64,000 bases of DNA from Patescibacteria group bacterium (lineage in GTDB: Bacteria > Patescibacteriota > Patescibacteriia > Patescibacteriales > UBA12075), in the NCBI GenBank assembly GCA_018897195.1, contig JAHILH010000003.1, forward strand, positions 431 through 64,430, in the 5' to 3' direction. Within the stretch, counting starts at the first letter, position 1. Every line of letters begins with the position of its first letter. Positions 25,469 to 58,467 of this stretch are shown here, in pieces. The notes beneath the pieces are model-generated. The model was not told where the DNA came from, did not search any database, and saw nothing but the letters and a program-made list of their open reading frames with translations. Both the position numbers and the translations under genes were made by a program.

Positions 25469-25978
25469 ATGCATAGTCAATTACAGAGAGCTATAAATAT
25501 TGCAAAAAAAACTGGCGATAAATTAATTGTCATTGATTCTCGTGAACCGGAAAATTCTTATGTTCTGATTCCTTTTGATGAATATGAACGTGATTTGGAA
25601 GCCAGTAATTGTAATTGCTGCGAAGATGAGGAATATTACAGTGAGGATGAAAATGCCGAAGAGGACGAAAAAATTGATTTCGACAATGATTATGAGGGTG
25701 AAAATGATTTTTATGCCCCGGTCGACAACCACTTGACAGAAGAGGAGCGAATTGATAAAATAAATCGCGACCTCTCAATTTCGAAAGAGGATAATTTGTC
25801 AAACGAAAGCGATTTTGATAAAATGAATTTTTTGGAAGGTAATTTTGACCGACGTGTGGATTTTTCCGAAGAGCATAGTGGTAAAAGTGGACATTGGAGT
25901 ATCCCAAAGAATATTAAAGAGGTAGCCGAGGAGGTGATTGAAGAAGATAGACACTATTTAGAGGAAATAACTTTTTAA
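25469..25978 (+). CDS. Hypothetical highly acidic protein inserted between fusA and tuf
   Basis: 169 aa. A ~40-aa N-terminal globular-looking segment, then Asp/Glu/Asn-rich low complexity including CNCCEDEEYY. Starts 23 nt after the fusA stop. Confidence 0.5.
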   Translation: MHSQLQRAINIAKKTGDKLIVIDSREPENSYVLIPFDEYERDLEASNCNCCEDEEYYSEDENAEEDEKIDFDNDYEGENDFYAPVDNHLTEEERIDKINRDLSISKEDNLSNESDFDKMNFLEGNFDRRVDFSEEHSGKSGHWSIPKNIKEVAEEVIEEDRHYLEEITF

Positions 25979-27397: not shown

Positions 27398-27751
27398 ATG
27401 ACAGCAGAAAAAAAATCCAAAAAAGAAACAGGCGAGAAAGATGATTCTAAACAAAAAATTAGAATCAAGATTAAGGCCTTTGATCATAAGATCATTGACC
27501 AGTCAACAAAGACAATTATTGACACCGTGAACAGAAGCGGTGCTAGCGTTTTTGGTCCTATTCCACTTCCAGTGGAAAAAAAGAGATACACTGTGAATCG
27601 ATCAACTTTCGTTCACAAGACAGCTAGAGATCAATATGAAATCAGAACTCACAAGAGACTGATTGATATTATTGACCCTACGCCAAAGACTATCGAGGAT
27701 TTGACAAGTCTAAGCTTACCAGCCGGTGTTGATATTGAAATAAAGATGTAA
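27398..27751 (+). CDS. rpsJ: 30S ribosomal protein S10 (with ~18-aa Lys-rich N-terminal extension)
   Basis: 117 aa. [16 protein letters not shown]...[12 protein letters not shown]. Confidence 0.95.
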
Positions 27752-27836
27752 TCCATTTTTGTTTAAATATTTGCCAAATTTTTATATTTATATTATATAT
27801 AATATAAAATGGCTAATATTGAATAATTAAAAGGAC

Positions 27837-27865
27837 TTGCATTTTTTAAAAAGATGGCATATAAT
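27837..27865 (+). promoter_or_regulatory. Strong sigma-70-type promoter inside the rpsJ-rplC gap
   Basis: TTGCAT (27837-27842), exactly 17 nt, TATAAT (27860-27865). AT-rich UP-like DNA lies upstream. Confidence 0.6.
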
Positions 27866-27871
27866 GTCATT

Positions 27872-28048
27872 ATATAAGTAGAGCTATCTTGTATTGTTTT
27901 AGTAACTCACTGCTAGCGCGGTGACAGTGCTTTAATGATGGATAAATAGCTAAACTAGAAAGGATTAAGTTAACAAAAAGATACAGTACAACTCAGAAGA
28001 TAATTCTATTATTTTTTAGTGCTGGTTTTGTTATAAACCAGTTTTTTG
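27872..28048 (+). ncRNA. Candidate ~175-nt structured RNA (independent sRNA, possibly 6S-like rod, or an attenuating leader of the rplC operon)
   Basis: Bounded by the promoter above and an intrinsic terminator (ctggttt-tgttat-aaaccag + tttttt, 28022-28047). Hand fold: 27880-27897 pairs with 27983-28007, 27898-27907 pairs with 27968-27979, and an apical hairpin is cactg/cagtg (27908-27929). No ORF. Confidence 0.5.
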
Positions 28049-28107
28049 TTTCTTAAATCCTTAAATTATCCGCTCCAAGCGGATCTGCGACAATAACAGA
28101 ATATTTT

Positions 28108-28923
28108 ATGAAATTTATTATAGGTAAAAAACAAGAAATGACTCAACTTTGGAAGAATGACAAAGTTGTTGCAGTAACCTTAGTTAAGGCTGAACCAAAC
28201 ATTGTAGTTCAAGTAAAAAATGAAGCTACTGATGGTTATTCAGCATTGCAAATGGGTTTTGGCGTTCGCAAAGAAAAGAATATCAAGAAACCACAATTAG
28301 GTCATATGAAGGGCTTGGGCAGTTTTGCTAAACTTCGTGAGTTCAGAACTGAAGGCGTAGAAGCTAAGAAGGGTGATGTGGTTGGCGTTGAAACATTTCA
28401 AGAAGGTGATATTATCCAAGTAACTGCTAACTCCAAAGGAAAAGGTTTTCAAGGTGTAGTAAAGAGACATGGTTTCAAAGGTCAGATTAAGACTCATGGT
28501 ACTAAGGATCAAGTTAGAATGCCTGGCTCGATTGGTGCTAAAGGCCCTGCTCATGTATTTAAAGGTACAAGAATGGGAGGTCGCATGGGTGGCAAGAGAA
28601 TTACAACTAGCAATTTGGAAATTATCAAAGTTGATATTGAAAATAATATTTTATACATCAAGGGTGCTGTACCAGGAGCAATTAACGGCTTGGTAATGAT
28701 TAAGGGCAAAGGTGAATTAAAATTTATTGAAGAGAAGACTGTTCCAGTTGAAGAAAAGGTTGAAGAAAAGGTTGAAGAAAAAGTTGAAGAGGTGGTTGAA
28801 GAGAAAGTGGTGGAAGTTAAGGAAGAGGTTAAGGCTGAAGAAGTAGTAAAAGCTGAAGAAAATATTGAACAAGTAGTAATTGAAGCTGGCAAAAAAATTG
28901 AAGACGAAGAAGCTTCAAAATAA
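28108..28923 (+). CDS. rplC: 50S ribosomal protein L3 with ~60-aa Glu/Lys/Val-rich C-terminal extension
   Basis: 271 aa. The core GKGFQGVVKRHGF..., then a (VEEK)n tail encoded by a 12-bp tandem repeat at about 28747-28800. Confidence 0.95.
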   Translation: MKFIIGKKQEMTQLWKNDKVVAVTLVKAEPNIVVQVKNEATDGYSALQMGFGVRKEKNIKKPQLGHMKGLGSFAKLREFRTEGVEAKKGDVVGVETFQEGDIIQVTANSKGKGFQGVVKRHGFKGQIKTHGTKDQVRMPGSIGAKGPAHVFKGTRMGGRMGGKRITTSNLEIIKVDIENNILYIKGAVPGAINGLVMIKGKGELKFIEEKTVPVEEKVEEKVEEKVEEVVEEKVVEVKEEVKAEEVVKAEENIEQVVIEAGKKIEDEEASK

Positions 28924-35213: not shown

Positions 35214-35624
35214 ATGACAGATCCAATAGCTGACATGTTAACAAGAATAAGAAATGCTTCCGCTGTGAAAAAAGCAGAGATTCTTTTACCGATGAGCAAA
35301 ATGAAGCATAAGATTGCCTTGATTCTTAAAGAAGAAGGGTGGGTTTATGATGTTGATGTTGTTAAAGCTAGCGCCGACCCGAAGAAATCTACTTTTGATG
35401 AATTAAAAATAGTATTGAAATACAAGAAGAGCGGTAAATCAGCGATTACTAGCATTAAGAGAATTAGTAAGCCAGGCTTACGCGCTTATTCCAAGAAGAT
35501 TGAACTACCTAGAGTTTTAAATAATTTGGGTATCGCCATTGTTTCAACATCTAAAGGCTTAATGACAAATAAAAAAGCTAGAAGAGAAGGTTTAGGTGGA
35601 GAAGTTATTTGTGAAATTTACTAA
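35214..35624 (+). CDS. rpsH: 30S ribosomal protein S8
   Basis: 136 aa. [15 protein letters not shown]. Confidence 0.97.
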
Positions 35625-50667: not shown

Positions 50668-53600
50668 ATGACTACGGAAAATAAAAAAACAATAAAGAAG
50701 AGATTTTGGCAGAGCTTTGTTTTAGGATTTTTTGTTGTTTTTTTATTGTTTGGTCGTGGCAAAAATGTTGCGGCGCTGTTCACTGGAACAGATTTTGCCG
50801 GAGGATCGGTTACAGATATAGCTTCATTGGGCAGCGCAGATCAGGCGGCGTTTGATCAGGCTCTTGGTGCTGGATTGATTAAGGTTGGTGATGATGGGGT
50901 GGTAAAAACTACCCTAAAGGGTGATATGGCTGATGCTGCGTCATGGGCTAGGACTTTTGCAGAACAAAAAACTAGAGATGCTTTGTCGACTCTTAATGCG
51001 AAAACTTTTTGGGCGGCGGCTCAAAAATCTTTAAACACCATTGCTTACGATACAGCTACTTGGATTGGCTCTGGTGGAAAAGGTCAAAAGCCGTTGTTTA
51101 TTACCGAGGGTTGGGATAAGTATTTGGCCAATATTGGTGATAATTTTGCCGGAGAATATATTGAAGCTCTGAGTAAGAAGTGGGATGCTAATCTTTGTAA
51201 CCCTAGCTTTGATATTAAAATTAAAATCTTAGGTGGTTTGTCTGGACCGTATCGGAAGAAAGCGCCGGCTTGTACTTTTACAACAATGAAGAAAAATTGG
51301 GAGTCGGAACTGGCTAGACCGGATTTTCTTAATCGCTTCCAAAATATGTTTGAGCCTAACTCTAATGATTTGGGCATCGCCTTGTCTTTGCAAACTAATT
51401 TAATGGAGGCAAGTGCTAACAAGACTAGATTGGCGGAGGAGAGGGTGAAGAATAAAAAAGGTTGGTTGGACGTTACGGATATAGCTGGCAATTTAACAGG
51501 GCTACCAACTGATCAGATTGTTACGTATCAATTGCAAAAAGATGGAACAACGAGAGCTATTGCTGCCAATACTTTTACAGGAACAATGGTTGACGCGGTT
51601 AATGTCTTTTTAAATCAATTAGCTGCGACCGTATTCAGTAATTTATTAAAAAGTTTAACCGGCGCGCCTGCTACGTCGCCGTACACAGGTGATTATGGCT
51701 TGGTGAATGTTAACGCTGGTGGTGGATCTGGCGGCACTGAAGCAGTCAAGGAGCAGTTTAAGAAGATTATTGAGCCTAATTTTACGGTGCGAGGTGATTA
51801 TGATATTTTGGCTGAATTAACAATATGTCCAGACCCAACTAAGGCGGGACCAACTAATTGTGTAATTACTGATAAATTCCGACAGGCGATTGCGGGTCGG
51901 ATGACAGTGGGAGAGGCAATGGATCAGAAGTATCTTAATCAGGATGCTATTTTTGGATTCAGATTAGATGGCTTAGAGCCGAAATATAACGAAGATTATC
52001 CATATCGTTCCATGATTATTTTGCGCAAATTTAGAATCTTGCCTGTCGGCTGGGAGGTGGCTGCGCAATATATCAAGGATCCTGCAACTGGTACAGGTGT
52101 CAGATCCTTAAAAGATTTAGTCGATTGTTTCTCTGATAATGATGCGCGTAATGGTTATTCAGCTAATTGGTGTAAGGGTTTAGTAGATCCAGATTGGGTT
52201 TTAAAGGCACCCTTGGGTTATTGTAAGAAAGAGGGGTATGGCCCAGAAATATTATCAGAAAATATTACTGGCGAGGGGAGTGCGAGCAAGTTGTCTATTT
52301 CTCGTAATAATAATTATTGCGCCGATGAACAATCTTGTATCAAGGAAAAAGCAGACGGCTCTTGTGATGTTTATGGTTATTGTACTGAAGAAAAGCGTAA
52401 ATGGAATTTTGGCAGCAATTCTTGCGAGCCGATTTATAATACTTGCCAGACCTTCCGCAGTCGTCAAGGTAATACAGTTTCTTATTTGCAAAATGGTTTA
52501 GATTTTAATAATTGTAGCGCGGATGCGGTTGGTTGTAGAGAGTATGCCATGGGCGTTAGTGCTAGTAATGGTTTTTATAATGTTGTAGATAATTCTGTCA
52601 AGTGGAGTTTATCAAGTGCCTCATCAACTTTTAATCGCATCATGAGTGATTGTGACGTTAAGGGTGAAGGTTGTCATCAGTTTATTCGTACGGAAATGAG
52701 CAACGGCGCTAATATTTTTGGCGGTTTTGAGGATTTGTTCGATGCGACTGTTGACGCAACAGCGGCCTTCGGTGACAAGAGTGTGAAATTAACACATGAT
52801 ATTGCCACTACCGTACCGGCCTTTAAGATTGACGTTGATTTGAAGGGTTATTATTATACCTTTTCCGTTTCGGCAAAAAATTGTGGCACCAACGGCGTGA
52901 TTGGAATAGGTGACAGTTTGACTAATTATTCATCGTCCACATTAGAAACAACAGATCAATGGCAACGTTTTGCAGTTTCGCATTATTTTAATAAAGAAAA
53001 TGAAAGTAATGATGGTCGAGTTTGGATAGGCGTTATCGGTGCTGACTATGCAAATTGCTTGATTGATGGCGTAAAAGTGGAAAAGAGTAAGAATCCGACT
53101 GTTTTTAGTGAATATGCACAGGTGGGCGTGATTTATGAAAAATTATTACCAAATTATTTGGAATATGTTTGTTATGATGATCCTGGGTTAAATTATAGCT
53201 TGAAGAGTACAGCACCCGCTATTTGTAATAGTTTTGCACGCAAGTGTAATGCCGAGGAGGTAGGTTGCAAAATGTTTACAGCGACAACGGACAAGATGAC
53301 AATCCCGGCGAGTGTAATACCGACTGATTATTGTGATGCATCCTGTAATGGTTATGACGAATATTTGCAATCAGAGAGTGCTTTTGATTCCCGACGATCG
53401 GCTTATTTGATTCCAACCAAAACCAAGACTTGTGGCGCCGAAGCAGTTGGCTGTGATCAATTTACTAACCTGGACAAGGTCGGTGATAGCGCGCAAAAGG
53501 AAAAAGTTGATCAGTATGGGGCAGAAGCAGTTGAGTATTATAGTGAGCTGAAGCAATGTGTTAAGGCTGGTGATGTAGCTTGCGCTGAATTTTATACCTG

Positions 53601-56600
53601 GGAGGGATCTTCAGAGACTGGTTTTCAATTAAAAGTTCATCAATTAAAGGCTGATAGCGCCACTGATCCGGCGGTTTCTAGTGATTCTCTTTATAATAAT
53701 AAAGTCTGTGATTCAGATACTTATGGAAGCCTAGACAATCCAATGTGTTTCGAGTTCTATAATAAGACGGGAAAAGTATCTTATAAATTTTTGCCGTATA
53801 CAATAGCTTGTAGTGACGATTGTCATCCATATCGCCGCACAGCTGTGAATGTTGACGATAGTATAACGACGCAAGCTGCTTGTGGTAGTGTTATTTGTAC
53901 TGATGAAGGGGCGGACAAGAAAGACAGCTGCTGGGATGCTCTTTTGAGTAATTGCAATGTTTGTTTGAATGGCGGTAAGTGGAGCGTAGCAGGCCAGGCT
54001 TGTATCTATGATGCAATCCCCGGTGAAGGCAAGACTTGTGCAGCGACTCAAGATGGTTGTCGTGAATATAATGGTAATTCAGGAGCCAACGTGCAGATTG
54101 TTTTACAAAGTGATTTCGAGGGTAGTGCTTCCGGATGGCAGGGCCTTGATGGTACTCAGGCGATACTTGATAGTGAGTCATTGAAATCTGGTGAAAATTC
54201 TCTTATGATTACTAACGCTAGCGGTGATACCGGTATTTCTTATGACGTCTCCGATGTTGTTAAGCAAGGCAAATCTTATCATTTAGCTTTCTTGGCTAAA
54301 GGTAAATCAAATTTAGTTAATAAATTTACTAATATTTATTTTGATTCTGGTGTAGCCTCATCATCATTGGCAGTGAATGCCGTGATTAAGACCGATTGGA
54401 ATCTTTATGAATTGAATTTGACTTCATTAGATCATGAAATAAGCGTTGATGAAAAATTACTCATTAAGGCTAATGGCGATTTTTTTATTGATAACATTAT
54501 TCTTACGGAAATTACAGATCGTTATTACTTGATTAAGGGTTCATCGGTTATTCCAGATGTTTGCAATAGTGATATTTTTGGCAATTATCAGGGACCAGAA
54601 TATAATTTGGGTTGTGCTGAATACTCCTCTGAAGGTGATAATAATAAACATTATTTGCGTCAATTTACTAATTTGTGTCAGGAAAGCGCAATCGGTTGTG
54701 AGATGATGATTGATACGCACAATAGTTCCAGTGCAGCTGAGGATAATATTGCCTTTGTTGTTTATAGCAAAGATAAGGAATGCACCAGTGAAGAAAAGGG
54801 CTGTGAACGAATGGGAGAAGTATCTAAATATGATAGCGGTGTTACTGATAGTGTTATTGAGAATTTTTATACTGATGTCTATAAGCTCAATAATCCAGAT
54901 AACGTGCAGGGCAAATGTGCCGCTGATCAGGTCGGTTGTGATGAATGGATATTTGACACGGCGTCGAATAATAATGGTGGGGCATCATTGAGTTATTTCA
55001 AAGACCCCTTTGATATGACTTGCGAATGGCGACAAAAGGCCAGCTCTACCGATTTTGACTGGTATCGAAAAAAGATTAGCCGATGTGGCGGTGTTGAAGA
55101 TGGACATATTTGTAAGAGTGACAAGGATTGTAGCACTGAATTAATGGATGTTAAAAAAACATGTACACTGTTCGATAAGGATATTTCTTGCTATGTCAGT
55201 AGTCAAAAAACAATCGGCTATGGTGGTTACGGTAATATTGTTGACCAGCCAAGTAATTATTGGGTGGGTGCTTGCCCAACTAGTCAATCGACTTGTACTG
55301 AATATATTGACCCTATTTCTAATTTCAGTTCTAATGTTATTTATAATAGTGATTTTTCGCAAGATGTTGATGGTAATCGTGTTGCTGATGGTTGGAGTGA
55401 GAACAAAGAGCAGAGCGTGTCATTGGAACCGAATACTTTGTACACTTTTTCAGTTAAATCTGGTTCTGGTTTTACGGCAAGCGTGACAGCAAGAAATTTA
55501 ACGTTGTTAAATGAAGGCAATTTATTCGCAGCCAGTGGCGCAATTTCTATTACTGTAAACGATGATGCGATTAGTAAATCTTTTTATTCAAATAATTCTA
55601 ATGGCGCCGTTGTTGAAGTTAGTTCTTCTGATGTGGCTTCGGGAAACAGTGTTAGCCTGAAAAAGAGTGTAATTGATTATCAATTAAGTCAAAGCGTTAA
55701 TAGGGATGAATGTAATGGATCCTTGAATCCTAGTAAGGGCTGTGTTTTGTTCAATGAACGAAAGAAGCCGGGAGTTTCGTATAGTGGACTAATTTATGAT
55801 GCCGACACAAGTACAACGACGCTAACCAGTGTGGCTGGGCAGAATGATTCTAATGTTTTATTAAAAGTTTCTCCTGATCGCACCTGTGATGAATGGTTGG
55901 CTTGCAAGAGCTATGTCAAAGATGAGAATAATAATAATGTTTGCTACGGTGTTGGCTTATGTGATAGCATTGGCGCTAATAATGACTGCAACAATTTTAT
56001 CGTTCCCGATAGTAAAAACCAGCAAGCAATCTCATCTAATTTTAGTAAATATCAAAATGCTTCAGGTTATTCCGAAGTTGGTGTCGTTAATAATACTTTG
56101 AAAAAAGATATGTTGCCATTAGCGTCTATGACTCAAAATGGAGGCATGACAGTGGTTCCCAATGGTGATTTTGAAAGAAGCGCTAGTAAATATCCGCTTG
56201 GTTGGAGTCCTTCTAATGATCTGGCATGGACGAATAATTTATTTTCCGTGGTCGATAATCCTATCACCGCTCAGACCGAAGGTATTAAATATGCCGGCAA
56301 AGGTAAAGCCTTTTTGAAATATTCGCCAGCAGCGGGAAATATGGAATCTGATTTTATTGACGTTGATCCTGGCGAAAACTACTATTTATCAGCCGATATT
56401 AACACGCTTAATTTCTTTTCCAAGGGAAATGTTCCGCTTTCATTTTATATTAGAATCCAAACATTTAGCAGCGCCGGTGTTTTTATAAATTCTTTTGATC
56501 CGATTGTTTTCGCCAATGGCAAGGATTGGAGCCAGGTTGTTAGTAATTTTTGGGTTAATAATAATGTTCATCGCATAAAAATAGAGTTTTTGGGTTGGGT

Positions 56601-58467
56601 TAATAATTCTACTGTTTGTGCTGGTCAGGGCGACACTTGTTCTGGTAATGTTTATGTTGATAATGTTGTCATTAAGCCAGCGCTAAAGACTAGAGTGGTT
56701 AACGGTTTTTATGACACTGTTGCTCCAACTTGCCGGCTTTATCCAGAAAGTGATTCATTATCATGTGAATATTACGAAGACTCTGGAATTAAGAAAAAAG
56801 GTCGCTATGGTTATTGCTTGGAGTATGATCGTTATCCAGGTAATCCCAATGCTTGTTTATTGTGGTATCCAGTTGACCGTATACGTGGTGATTGGGAGGA
56901 GGATGTGGTTGGATATAATGATCGCTATCCCTTGTATTATTGTACGCAATTCCACTCTCGAAATTTAGAGCTTGTTGAGAGAAGAGTTGATACTCGTTTT
57001 GGACACGCTGAGCCGGGAGATGATGAGTGTGCTGGCGCTTATTGCAATGGCGCTGGATGCAGTACTTGTAAATGTCCTAGCGGATATATATGGGAGGATG
57101 TGGAGGGTGATGGCGGTTGGGATGGTAATCCGAATGATGAATATTGTCACCCTAGTGGCACAGCTAGTGCTTGCGGGGGCGGGTATTACTTATATGATGG
57201 TGATTTGCAGAATTTTGGGGGAAATGCTGGTAGTTATGATGAGGCAAAAACTGGAGTCAAATTGTGTGACAGGGATACAGGGGAATTATTTGATCCTGGT
57301 CAGTTCTCTGATTTGTTTTATTGTACTAGTTTGGCCAAGGTTGTGACATTTAGTAATAATAAACATTGGAGTGGGCGAGTTTATAGTGGTTCTGATTATA
57401 AAATTCAAACACTTAATTATGGCTACAAGATGCCTCTTGGACCGTTTAGTGGCGTAGTGTCACCGTATCTAGCAGAAAATCCTGCCGGCTGGGATGCTAA
57501 GAAAAACACTGACACTAATACCAACGTAGAGCCATTGCCAATAAAAAATTTCAAGGATGATGCGCTATACTCAAAGGAAGTTAATTCTGGGGCATTGTAT
57601 AGTTGTGAGGGTAATTGCATTAAAAGCGGTCTGTGTCAAAAATCTCGAAAATTCTGCTATAATCTTCCAGTGCCGCCAACTCCGCCAAATGCGGTTAATC
57701 CAAATAATAATTTTGTGAATTATTTTGAATGTGCCGTTGGAGATGTTTGTGAAACTAGTTTTCCAGTTTTGAGCACGGGTGATAATCCTGTCGCTGCTTA
57801 TGACAAGATTAAAAGAGTTTTTGCGGAAAGTTATGGTACTTGGAAGTGGGGCGGTAATAAGTATGTAAAAACTAGCTATAACTGGTCTGTTCCTCGGAAT
57901 ATTTGTGGTGGTAGCACACCGACCAATGTTAGACCGGCTTATCCAGACGATTTTTGTGGTATTCCGCCAAGGGTTAGCAATCTTTTAATAAGGGGCGTTA
58001 TAAATGATGCTGTTCTTCGTAAAAATGGCCTAATTAACTTATCTTTTAATTCCATTCTTGATAGTCAACAAATGCCTCTAGTTATGTATACGGTAAATTG
58101 GGGTGATAATAATAGTGACACCGTTTCCGGCATTGAAATATTACCAAGGATGAGTACGAGTAGTCCGCATGTACTGTACTATTCTTATAGTTATTGGGAT
58201 CTAAAGGCCAAAAACTCCATCAACAATCTTCCATCTGGACAGAATACTGTTTATTGTGGTGCTCATGACACTAAAACTGCTTTAAACGCAAGTGGTGATG
58301 CGATTTCCATAACGGCAACCTCAACGTCTGATTTTTGCGCTGTTAAACCTAAAGTGAAATTAAAAGATAACTGGGGGTGGTGTACTGGAGGTGTTGATAA
58401 TACCCCTTGTTCTGATACTGGTGATTATGCTAATTATCCAGGCTGGGTTATTGTGACGGAGCAATAG
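50668..58467 (+). CDS. Giant (2599 aa) N-terminally anchored, Cys-rich extracellular protein with four CBM4/9-like jelly-roll modules
   Basis: One uninterrupted ORF. N-terminal TM FWQSFVLGFFVVFLLFG. Four ~120-180-aa modules start with G/S/N-[GD]-F-E/S and end with [ILV]D[GN][IV]x[ILV] (nt ~52720-53095, 54105-54530, 55340-55690, 56155-56690). At least 13 copies of the motif C-x3-6-G/T-C-x2-aromatic. Confidence 0.8.
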   Translation: MTTENKKTIKKRFWQSFVLGFFVVFLLFGRGKNVAALFTGTDFAGGSVTDIASLGSADQAAFDQALGAGLIKVGDDGVVKTTLKGDMADAASWARTFAEQKTRDALSTLNAKTFWAAAQKSLNTIAYDTATWIGSGGKGQKPLFITEGWDKYLANIGDNFAGEYIEALSKKWDANLCNPSFDIKIKILGGLSGPYRKKAPACTFTTMKKNWESELARPDFLNRFQNMFEPNSNDLGIALSLQTNLMEASANKTRLAEERVKNKKGWLDVTDIAGNLTGLPTDQIVTYQLQKDGTTRAIAANTFTGTMVDAVNVFLNQLAATVFSNLLKSLTGAPATSPYTGDYGLVNVNAGGGSGGTEAVKEQFKKIIEPNFTVRGDYDILAELTICPDPTKAGPTNCVITDKFRQAIAGRMTVGEAMDQKYLNQDAIFGFRLDGLEPKYNEDYPYRSMIILRKFRILPVGWEVAAQYIKDPATGTGVRSLKDLVDCFSDNDARNGYSANWCKGLVDPDWVLKAPLGYCKKEGYGPEILSENITGEGSASKLSISRNNNYCADEQSCIKEKADGSCDVYGYCTEEKRKWNFGSNSCEPIYNTCQTFRSRQGNTVSYLQNGLDFNNCSADAVGCREYAMGVSASNGFYNVVDNSVKWSLSSASSTFNRIMSDCDVKGEGCHQFIRTEMSNGANIFGGFEDLFDATVDATAAFGDKSVKLTHDIATTVPAFKIDVDLKGYYYTFSVSAKNCGTNGVIGIGDSLTNYSSSTLETTDQWQRFAVSHYFNKENESNDGRVWIGVIGADYANCLIDGVKVEKSKNPTVFSEYAQVGVIYEKLLPNYLEYVCYDDPGLNYSLKSTAPAICNSFARKCNAEEVGCKMFTATTDKMTIPASVIPTDYCDASCNGYDEYLQSESAFDSRRSAYLIPTKTKTCGAEAVGCDQFTNLDKVGDSAQKEKVDQYGAEAVEYYSELKQCVKAGDVACAEFYTWEGSSETGFQLKVHQLKADSATDPAVSSDSLYNNKVCDSDTYGSLDNPMCFEFYNKTGKVSYKFLPYTIACSDDCHPYRRTAVNVDDSITTQAACGSVICTDEGADKKDSCWDALLSNCNVCLNGGKWSVAGQACIYDAIPGEGKTCAATQDGCREYNGNSGANVQIVLQSDFEGSASGWQGLDGTQAILDSESLKSGENSLMITNASGDTGISYDVSDVVKQGKSYHLAFLAKGKSNLVNKFTNIYFDSGVASSSLAVNAVIKTDWNLYELNLTSLDHEISVDEKLLIKANGDFFIDNIILTEITDRYYLIKGSSVIPDVCNSDIFGNYQGPEYNLGCAEYSSEGDNNKHYLRQFTNLCQESAIGCEMMIDTHNSSSAAEDNIAFVVYSKDKECTSEEKGCERMGEVSKYDSGVTDSVIENFYTDVYKLNNPDNVQGKCAADQVGCDEWIFDTASNNNGGASLSYFKDPFDMTCEWRQKASSTDFDWYRKKISRCGGVEDGHICKSDKDCSTELMDVKKTCTLFDKDISCYVSSQKTIGYGGYGNIVDQPSNYWVGACPTSQSTCTEYIDPISNFSSNVIYNSDFSQDVDGNRVADGWSENKEQSVSLEPNTLYTFSVKSGSGFTASVTARNLTLLNEGNLFAASGAISITVNDDAISKSFYSNNSNGAVVEVSSSDVASGNSVSLKKSVIDYQLSQSVNRDECNGSLNPSKGCVLFNERKKPGVSYSGLIYDADTSTTTLTSVAGQNDSNVLLKVSPDRTCDEWLACKSYVKDENNNNVCYGVGLCDSIGANNDCNNFIVPDSKNQQAISSNFSKYQNASGYSEVGVVNNTLKKDMLPLASMTQNGGMTVVPNGDFERSASKYPLGWSPSNDLAWTNNLFSVVDNPITAQTEGIKYAGKGKAFLKYSPAAGNMESDFIDVDPGENYYLSADINTLNFFSKGNVPLSFYIRIQTFSSAGVFINSFDPIVFANGKDWSQVVSNFWVNNNVHRIKIEFLGWVNNSTVCAGQGDTCSGNVYVDNVVIKPALKTRVVNGFYDTVAPTCRLYPESDSLSCEYYEDSGIKKKGRYGYCLEYDRYPGNPNACLLWYPVDRIRGDWEEDVVGYNDRYPLYYCTQFHSRNLELVERRVDTRFGHAEPGDDECAGAYCNGAGCSTCKCPSGYIWEDVEGDGGWDGNPNDEYCHPSGTASACGGGYYLYDGDLQNFGGNAGSYDEAKTGVKLCDRDTGELFDPGQFSDLFYCTSLAKVVTFSNNKHWSGRVYSGSDYKIQTLNYGYKMPLGPFSGVVSPYLAENPAGWDAKKNTDTNTNVEPLPIKNFKDDALYSKEVNSGALYSCEGNCIKSGLCQKSRKFCYNLPVPPTPPNAVNPNNNFVNYFECAVGDVCETSFPVLSTGDNPVAAYDKIKRVFAESYGTWKWGGNKYVKTSYNWSVPRNICGGSTPTNVRPAYPDDFCGIPPRVSNLLIRGVINDAVLRKNGLINLSFNSILDSQQMPLVMYTVNWGDNNSDTVSGIEILPRMSTSSPHVLYYSYSYWDLKAKNSINNLPSGQNTVYCGAHDTKTALNASGDAISITATSTSDFCAVKPKVKLKDNWGWCTGGVDNTPCSDTGDYANYPGWVIVTEQ

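Follow-up and report, generated by a model that had tools for sequence, protein, structure and literature searches.

In Escherichia coli, ribosomal protein (r-protein) S8 represses the spc operon through a mimic of helix 21 of 16S ribosomal RNA (rRNA) (PMC4176348, PMC3616713), and in Bacillus subtilis L20 controls the infC operon via a terminator/antiterminator leader (PMC1865079). Regulation of the spc operon outside Gammaproteobacteria was described as unknown in a 2024 review (PMC10931766), and the sole leader upstream of rplC listed by Eckert and Weinberg (2020), in Archaeoglobi, was assigned to L4 on prior knowledge. Neither Rfam 15 nor the literature that could be searched gave us an r-protein leader or RNA motif of the r-protein operons of Patescibacteria or Parcubacteria (candidate phyla radiation). 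Here we describe the 356 nucleotides (nt) that separate the end of rpsJ (27751) from the start of rplC (28108) in a 64,000-nt stretch of contig JAHILH010000003.1 from a Patescibacteria group bacterium, called the window throughout. A sequence-only reading of the window had singled out this gap and proposed for it either an independent small RNA or an attenuating leader. We conclude from the comparison of related sequences that the gap very probably holds a conserved cis-regulatory leader with a terminator/antiterminator switch, and that this leader represents a family of r-protein leaders, not catalogued before, in Falkowbacteria-like Patescibacteria. Our best reading is that it is an autoregulatory transcription attenuator of a fused S10–spc operon (rplC...rpsH...secY), and likeness in sequence points to S8 as its ligand, with a probability of roughly 0.55.

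Among the described systems, the B. subtilis infC–rpmI–rplT leader (L20 leader, RF00558) is, judged by layout, the nearest apparent mechanistic analogue of the rplC leader. It joins an rRNA-mimicking domain to a terminator/antiterminator within a leader of ~200 nt (PMC1865079), as the rplC leader appears to do, but the protein, the fold and the operon are different, and in the rplC leader we saw no part of the structure that the putative binding domain and the antiterminator have in common. The E. coli S10 leader has in common with it that the genes rplC-rplD-rplW-rplB and onwards are controlled by an intrinsic terminator in the leader (PMC3616713). The E. coli leader, however, precedes rpsJ, overlaps its start codon and blocks its translation, whereas the leader described here lies downstream of rpsJ (82/84 loci). 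It has five hairpins (HA–HE), with L4 and NusA acting at the terminator hairpin without an antiterminator, whereas here we find one hairpin of three helices (P1–P3), a small hairpin P4 and a covarying antiterminator. It responds to L4, whereas the core of the present leader resembles the S8 site and not a known L4 site; it is confined to Gammaproteobacteria (PMC3616713) and has no sequence or structural similarity to the leader here. The second proposal of the sequence-only reading, a leader that attenuates the L3-L4-L23-L2 genes, is thus borne out as to position and type (conserved, directly upstream of rplC, with a terminator and a covarying antiterminator) but not as a relocated E. coli L4/S10 leader.

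A conserved leader precedes rplC in Falkowbacteria-like Patescibacteria

Related loci were collected with the L3 protein in a GTDB genome scan (38 loci) and a metagenome scan (80 further loci); three-digit handles, L001–L118 together, denote these loci and not proteins. Comparison of L3 and EF-Tu placed the affinity of the window with Falkowbacteria-like Patescibacteria. The gap length of 356 nt was confirmed from the sequence and the list of open reading frames (ORFs). The accompanying premise that rpsJ and rplC are normally adjacent does not describe this clade, in which a long spacer is the rule: it measures 193–469 nt in 23 Falkowbacteria-like or Parcubacteria-labelled metagenome-assembled genomes (MAGs). 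Spacers of 51–80 nt were found in four other Patescibacteria (L024, L029, L030, L032) and one of 167 nt in L031; those of L025 and L027 are long, with variant or different content. Three blocks are common to the long spacers: GUAACUC, followed by a variable hairpin and GAAAGUGC; GGAGGUAAAYCAGY; and a conserved terminator, GCUGGU...ACCAGUUUUU.

We built a covariance model (CM R1) on the 5' hairpin and searched it against the GTDB and metagenome loci. It gave one strong plus-strand match per locus, always upstream of rplC. Twenty-four GTDB loci were matched; L011, outside the seed, was found at E=1.6e-7, and the window copy, at 44 bits (E=7e-6), was the weakest among the seed sequences. On the 80 metagenome loci the model gave 64 matches at E<=0.05 and four more weak ones (E=0.28) at the same place, all upstream of rplC. 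Recognisable variants occur in loci that the model missed (L059, L083/L086, L052, L094, L010, L025). Overall the leader is present in ~95 loci, always on the plus strand and 100–250 nt upstream of rplC.

In ~50 of the 82 loci with rpsJ directly upstream, the hairpin begins 7–22 nt past the rpsJ stop codon, and none of these ~50 has a promoter before it; the leader is therefore read through from rpsJ and is normally part of an mRNA. In L010 a promoter and the leader still stand before rplC, although the 3 kb upstream contain no rpsJ match, which indicates that the element belongs to rplC. In the window, as in the related loci (540 kb), the hairpin and the switch module never occurred separately.

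A covarying hairpin is followed by a terminator/antiterminator switch

RNAalifold on 23 sequences returned a 5' hairpin made of P1, P2, an asymmetric loop and P3, with compensatory changes in 18 of 19 pairs (Table 1). Across 79 distinct sequences, 90% of cells were paired, compared with 67–68% in shuffles and 38–48% with slid partners, and double-change cells numbered 384 compared with 123 in shuffles; 0 of 500 shuffles reached any of the observed measures. Counted over the hairpin, 19 of 20 pairs had double changes. Nucleotides conserved in at least 90% of sequences are confined to the loop (5'-AACUC and GAnAGU-3'), and the core is exactly UAACUC/GAAAGUG in 45 of the 79. The long irregular helix that had been folded by hand (27880–27897 with 27983–28007; 27898–27907 with 27968–27979) was not recovered, its strands being assigned by covariation to P1 and P2. 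An apical hairpin placed at 27908–27929 roughly matches P3, but the ~175-nt rod drawn around it is unsupported. The alignment of relatives' spacers that the sequence-only reading had called for showed that the spacer is conserved and that the hairpin and the antiterminator covary, though not as a long rod. The architecture that is supported comprises an ~80-nt hairpin (27877–27956), the small hairpin P4 and the terminator. Folding of the plus strand against shuffled sequence gave z scores of -2.6 (179 nt) and -5.8 (356 nt), and the minus strand gave -2.8.

The predicted terminator before rplC was seen both in the sequence and by a terminator scan, as expected from the first description of the gap. 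It takes the form RCUGGY...RCCRGY-U(>=3) in 82 of 84 leaders and variant forms in the remaining two. Folding of a transcript cut before the 3' arm of the terminator revealed an antiterminator, in which an upstream strand pairs with the terminator 5' arm and loop and encloses P4, a hairpin whose length and sequence differ between relatives. The antiterminator was present in the minimum free energy (MFE) fold of most relatives even when the 3' arm was included. Native duplexes of strand and arm had mean energies of -11.6 to -12.1 kcal/mol, compared with -9.3 to -9.6 kcal/mol for partners swapped between loci; the native value was reached by 0 of 5000 permutations, and z was -9.1 (0/3000) when the test was repeated in another form. 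ACUGG arms were paired with CAGU in eight of nine cases (the ninth has no CAG motif) and never with CAGC. The stem of the terminator is conserved in sequence because it is under a three-way constraint between its 3' arm, its 5' arm and the antiterminator strand. In the lineage of the window, a discrete terminated species of ~176 nt is expected as a by-product of attenuation.

We found no leader peptide: the plus strand of the putative RNA (27872–28047) holds no ORF of at least 20 amino acids (aa), in agreement with the first description. Antitermination by a BoxA/NusB–S10 site was considered and rejected, as the GCUCUUU half of BoxA is missing from the UUAACAA tract.

Table 1. Coordinates of the leader, its parts and the genes around it in the window
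Feature	Position	Strand	Basis and description
rpsJ (S10)	27398..27751	+	Pfam Ribosomal_S10, E=3e-33; upstream gene, outside the regulated unit
AT-rich hairpin	27773..27813	+	MFE fold; closed by GCCA...UGGC, right after the rpsJ stop codon
Predicted promoter	27837..27865	+	TTGCAT -35 (27837-27842), 17-nt spacer, TATAAT -10 (27860-27865)
5' sensor hairpin, ~80 nt	27877..27956	+	MFE fold, covariation, CM R1
P1	27882-27887/27946-27951	+	MFE fold
P2	27892-27904/27928-27940	+	MFE fold
Loop 5' strand, U-A-A-C-U-C	27903..27908	+	Aligns with 16S U594-A595-A596-G597-U598-C599; each position at least 94% conserved
P3	27907-27913/27918-27924	+	MFE fold
Loop 3' strand, G-A-C-A-G-U-G (family GAaAGUg)	27923..27929	+	Aligns with 16S G639-A640-U641-A642-C643-U644-G645
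Antiterminator 5' strand	27971..27989	+	Pairs with 28019-28033 (terminator 5' arm and loop), enclosing P4
P4, variable A-rich/U-rich hairpin	27995..28017	+	MFE folds of the window and 13 relatives; inside the antiterminator
Predicted intrinsic terminator	28021..28050	+	Terminator scan; GCUGGUUU (28021-28028), loop, AAACCAGU (28035-28042), then UUUUUGUUU U tract
Small GC-rich hairpin	28068..28084	+	AUCCGC/GCGGAU; between terminator and rplC, 23 nt before the ATG
rplC (L3)	28108..28923	+	Pfam Ribosomal_L3; first gene of the regulated string
rpsH (S8)	35214..35624	+	Pfam Ribosomal_S8, E=1.4e-46; ~7 kb downstream in the same plus-strand gene string

The hairpin loop resembles the S8-binding site of 16S rRNA

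The rRNA reference for this comparison was E. coli 16S, 23S and 5S, which may not match the 16S of the clade itself; neither the window nor the collected loci contain a 16S rRNA. PMC4176348 describes the S8 core as two triples, A595-(A596-U644) and (G597-C643)-U641, together with the invariant A642, within an odd-numbered asymmetric loop. It reads UAAGUC (594–599)/GAUACUG (639–645) in E. coli 16S helix 21 and A80-A-G-U-C84/G6-A-A-A-C-U-G12 in the E. coli spc operator (numbering of PMC4176348). At each of the S8-core positions the leader can be aligned with helix 21 without a change of orientation, the only difference being that G597-C643 appears as C-G. The leader and the S8 site have the same invariant nucleotides, A595, A596, A642 and U644, with U-A, C-G and U.G as flanking pairs. 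The two loop adenines that correspond to A595 and A596 are 96% and 94% conserved, the opposing U (U644) 99%, and A27926, the counterpart of A642, also 99%. The sole variable position of the loop falls on N641 (A in 68 sequences, U in 6, C in 4; C27925 in the window). C27906-G27927, which is G597-C643 inverted, is CG in 75 sequences, UA in two and UG in one, and is never unpaired. The pairs above the loop are UA in 74 (U598-A640) and CG in 76 (C599-G639), and the pair below it is UG in 55 and CG in 12 (U594.G645). Both sites thus present a U.G-closed lower helix, A-A, a Watson–Crick pair, a two-nt bulge ending in the invariant A, and then U-A and C-G. They differ in the inverted pair, in N641, which in the leader is usually A and not U, and in P2 and P3, which have no sequence relation to helix 21. 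When we scanned the E. coli rRNAs for the leader core with flanking helices required, we found one site, 16S 595/639, which is the S8 site; such a helix-flanked site occurred in 40 of 5000 rRNA shuffles.

The E. coli spc operator is, like the candidate site in the leader, a helix 21 mimic in an mRNA that encodes S8. The cores are alike (AAGUC/GAAACUG in the operator, AACUC/GAaAGUG in the leader), and N641 is A in both, in the leader usually. The G-C pair is inverted in the leader, however, and the leader has the strand orientation of rRNA whereas the operator is flipped; outside the loop we detected no homology. The operator overlaps the rplE start codon and acts by translational repression with coupling, whereas the leader lies upstream of rplC, ~7 kb before rpsH, and probably works by terminating transcription. 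Unlike the leader, which is found in Patescibacteria, the E. coli operator is limited to Gammaproteobacteria (PMC3616713, PMC10931766). The S8 protein of the window can be aligned with E. coli S8 over its full length, and it retains RAY (RIY in E. coli) and VSTSKG. From the alignment, we assume that these motifs contain Tyr85 and Thr106/Ser107, for which PMC4176348 reports RNA contacts.

Several other mappings were tried and given up. An S8 alignment with the hairpin flipped was rejected, the correct alignment being in rRNA orientation. Look-alikes in 23S H62 (GUAACUUCGGGAGAAGG) and in 23S domain VI (2765–2804) matched the pattern at chance level and were dropped. Two more candidate look-alikes, 23S nucleotides 1650–1676 and H46 (GGAGGUAUCAG), were dropped as well. 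The strings of 5S loop C (AACUCAGAAGUG) match but failed the flanking-helix test; its two strands, as we take the 5S secondary structure to be, do not face each other. Elsewhere in the window, a 25-nt mini-hairpin at 53702–53721 (AUAAAGUCUG-UGUU-CAGAUACUUAU) has the exact rRNA-type S8 core AAGUC/GAUACU and lies inside a single plus-strand ORF of 2599 aa (50668–58467); by a rough scaling of the shuffle rate, one chance match per 128 kb is ~20% likely.

A model for S8-dependent attenuation and the points against it

In our best reading, as long as S8 is consumed by rRNA the antiterminator would form and RNA polymerase would read into rplC. Once free S8 accumulates, it would bind the hairpin and move the balance toward the terminator, so that transcription would stop ~60 nt before rplC. 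This direction of the effect, S8 binding as a promoter of termination, is tentative, and we put it somewhat below even odds. The gene upstream of the leader, rpsJ (S10/NusE), would escape control. The leader would be transcribed from its own promoter in the lineage of the window and by read-through from rpsJ in most relatives.

Several observations weigh against this model. The full-hairpin CM gave no match in the E. coli rrnH operon, helix 21 included, and the likeness is therefore limited to the loop and three flanking pairs; the bare string pattern, with no flanking helices required, is common enough to be expected 0.9 times per rRNA shuffle. For S8 binding, both the (G-C)-U641 triple and a contact of Tyr with G597 are reported to be important (PMC4176348), and the G597-C643 pair is inverted in the leader. 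The window copy is itself divergent (44 bits), with C and not A at the N641 equivalent and GAAAGGA in place of GGAGG in the linker between hairpin and switch. Sensor and switch also look independent at the level of secondary structure. Locking P2 and P3 shifted the free-energy difference between terminator and antiterminator by 0.0 kcal/mol (n=77), and the 3' strand of P1 did not covary with the terminator across the family (z = -0.85). A pseudoknot between J1/2 and the antiterminator (UGAUU:AAUCA) is unsupported (z = +1.9). In L084, L080 and L053 compensation occurs within P3 and not in the linker, which contradicts a GGAGG:CUCC pairing. Simple steric blocking is not obvious, because the S8 site is ~20 bp from the linker.

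Other pairings between the hairpin and the switch fared similarly. In the window lineage, AUAGCUAAACUAG (27946–27958, the 3' strand of P1) could pair with 28022–28034, perfectly so in L039 and L040; as an alternative antiterminator this strand is possible in that lineage but, given the z score above, not family-wide. Pairing of the 5' strand of P1 with the antiterminator strand was negative in the covariation test. The logic of an anti-antiterminator, with the sensor competing against the antiterminator, found no support in the pairing or energy tests.

The linker itself carries a purine tract directly 5' of the antiterminator strand. A 4-mer of the Shine–Dalgarno (SD) core is present there in 78 of 84 leaders, and the full GGAGG in 42. 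Inspection of the aligned leaders showed no ATG, GTG or TTG within 10 nt after the GGAGG tract, as a true SD would have. GGAG, GAGG or AGGA stands at -20 to -4 before 27 of 413 genes in the relatives' loci and before 2 of 28 window genes (starts 22305–45039), against a background of 11%; with SD 4-mers before genes below background, translation initiation looks SD-independent. The canonical linker, UUGGAGGU, equals 16S 827–834 at the junction of helices 25 and 26, is unique in 16S, and helix 25 is a secondary, non-specific contact of S8. This identity may be a coincidence, and the window copy departs from it. On an extended version of the model, the leader would read ribosome status through the S8-site mimic together with the SD-like GGAGG/AGGA tract, and a protein or the ribosome, not base-pair competition, would link sensor and switch: free 30S subunits, with their anti-SD unused, or the second RNA-binding surface of S8 would hold the tract and block the antiterminator. 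We regard this version as quite improbable.

Alternative explanations

The same leader and attenuator could respond to another protein of the operon, L4 or L3, with the likeness to the S8 site being coincidental. The leader stands directly before rplC and rplD, L3 being the nearest gene; the Archaeoglobi leader at the corresponding place was assigned to L4 (Eckert and Weinberg 2020), and in E. coli it is L4 that controls the S10 operon by way of a terminator (PMC3616713). The inverted S8 pair and the missing coupling between hairpin and switch, which weaken the case for S8, also speak for such a ligand. We found no resemblance of the leader to any rRNA site of L3 or L4, however: the CM was empty in E. 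coli 23S and the H62 and domain VI look-alikes were at chance, whereas the loop fits the S8 core at every conserved position, the sole such site in E. coli rRNA. Another protein of the operon as ligand is unlikely on this balance. It is slightly less likely that the two modules are independent, with the hairpin, bound by S8 or another factor, affecting mRNA stability, processing or translation, and a separate attenuator that is constitutive or is governed by the speed of the polymerase, by Nus factors or by a factor bound to the conserved GGAGG-like linker. Such independence would agree with the uniformly negative tests of base-pairing coupling and with the contrast between 78 of 84 linkers and 27 of 413 genes in SD-core 4-mers. 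Against it, the modules always occur together, in fixed order and with a short linker, in ~95 loci, and within the window and the related loci (540 kb) neither was found alone.

The covariance-model check proposed by the sequence-only reading was run with Rfam 15. At the gathering threshold it gave no 6S or other family for the gap, no match anywhere in the 64 kb and none for the leader in 13 related loci. In E-value mode the gap gave chance-level matches only, with no 6S even at E<=10; the best was L20_leader, at 22.4 bits compared with a gathering score of 58.7, and covered the terminator alone. A riboswitch, or another RNA that senses a metabolite, an ion or a tRNA and so controls the r-protein operon, would suit the layout of an aptamer followed by an expression platform. 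It is very improbable, as no riboswitch family matched, the gene context is exclusively ribosomal proteins, and the conserved nucleotides are found only in one small internal loop of a simple hairpin, a typical protein site and a poor ligand pocket. An independent trans-acting small RNA, 6S-like or other, is barely credible. The promoter and terminator of the window do bracket ~176 nt without an ORF, and a terminated RNA is expected from them that could serve as a ligand sponge. Yet no 6S or other small RNA family appeared at E<=10; an 80-nt hairpin with a terminator is not a rod with a central bubble resembling an open promoter, and we rejected 6S RNA on these grounds. Most relatives have no promoter and a hairpin that follows the rpsJ stop codon within 7–22 nt, so that it is normally part of read-through mRNA, and the element is locked 5' of rplC, L010 included.

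If S8 is the ligand, as our best reading holds, the leader would be an independent invention of S8 mimicry, wired to transcription termination and not to translation, and the mimic would head a fused S10–spc operon with S10/NusE left outside its control. The leader probably lets these tiny bacteria throttle r-protein production. For Nomura-type feedback in organisms that are not culturable alone, it offers a definite case that can be tested. It is also an attenuator without the usual strand competition between sensor and switch and, with C-G at 597/643, a natural variant of the S8 site for structural work. The covariance model can be used to annotate Falkowbacteria-like MAGs.

Promoter, flanking hairpins and gene setting

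The element TTGCAT-17-TATAAT had been rated among the best promoter matches of the window. It is present as described, and TTGCAT-N16-18-TATAAT occurs only once in the whole window, but as a consensus match it does not rank at the top: the -35 hexamer agrees with TTGACA at only three of six positions, and for this reason a promoter scanner skipped it. Promoter-like matches in the AT-rich region are near chance (68 found compared with 57 expected). The predicted transcription start is ~27872. The promoter is identical in the closest relatives (L039–L041; L3 identity 86–95%, with 95% in L039 and L040). Hardly any change is seen in them between promoter and terminator, whereas the sequence on either side has diverged; this invariance is the best evidence that the predicted promoter may be functional. 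A similar promoter (TTGCAT-N17-TATAMT) lies at the same place in L006, L014, L015, L017 and L059. A promoter precedes the hairpin in some lineages only, which are the window, L039–L041, these five loci, L083 and L010.

Two further hairpins flank the leader. The one after the rpsJ stop codon is lineage-specific, its closing pairs being kept in L039 and L040 and compatibly changed in L041; in this lineage, in which the leader has its own promoter, it may serve as the 3' end or a stabiliser of the tuf–rpsJ transcript. The hairpin between terminator and rplC shows a compensatory UCCCGAG/CUCGGGA in L040, is kept in L041 and is absent from most of the leader family. In L008, L012, L002, L052, L083/L086 and L027, an extra 100–200 nt between terminator and rplC contain palindromic ACAAAUUUGUA or CGAAUC-type repeats, which look like small inserted repeat elements. 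In the more distant Patescibacteria L027 (~2670–2725) and L026 (~980–1065), a different conserved element precedes rplC. A long stem in it encloses GAGCACUCACUAARUAAAAAA(N)UGGAGGUCACCAU, and after the stem come a promoter of TTGAC type and a terminator. The element has no Rfam match and may be another uncatalogued leader or small RNA.

Several third-party annotation (TPA) MAG records among the loci L005, L008, L009, L011, L013, L016, L021, L023 and L028 are titled 'uncultured Gammaproteobacteria', yet they carry Falkowbacteria-like L3, S10 and EF-Tu together with the leader; by these sequences, the labels look wrong.

On the plus strand of the window, fusA is followed by a small acidic ORF, then by tuf, a strong terminator and rpsJ and, past the gap, by rplC, rplD (its product with a Pfam Ribosomal_L4 match), rplW, rplB...rpsH, rplO and secY; the intergenic gaps from rplC to secY are below 110 nt. 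The ORF between fusA and tuf (25469–25978) encodes 169 aa, is very acidic and has no Pfam match. Inside it, ~365 nt before tuf, TTGACA-17-TAAAAT with an upstream TG (25733–25761) is the best consensus promoter match of the region. L3 carries a C-terminal extension of ~65 aa (28700–28920), in which Glu, Lys and Val are abundant and VEEK-type repeats occur; the extension is common to the clade, since many relatives align out to residues 240–263.

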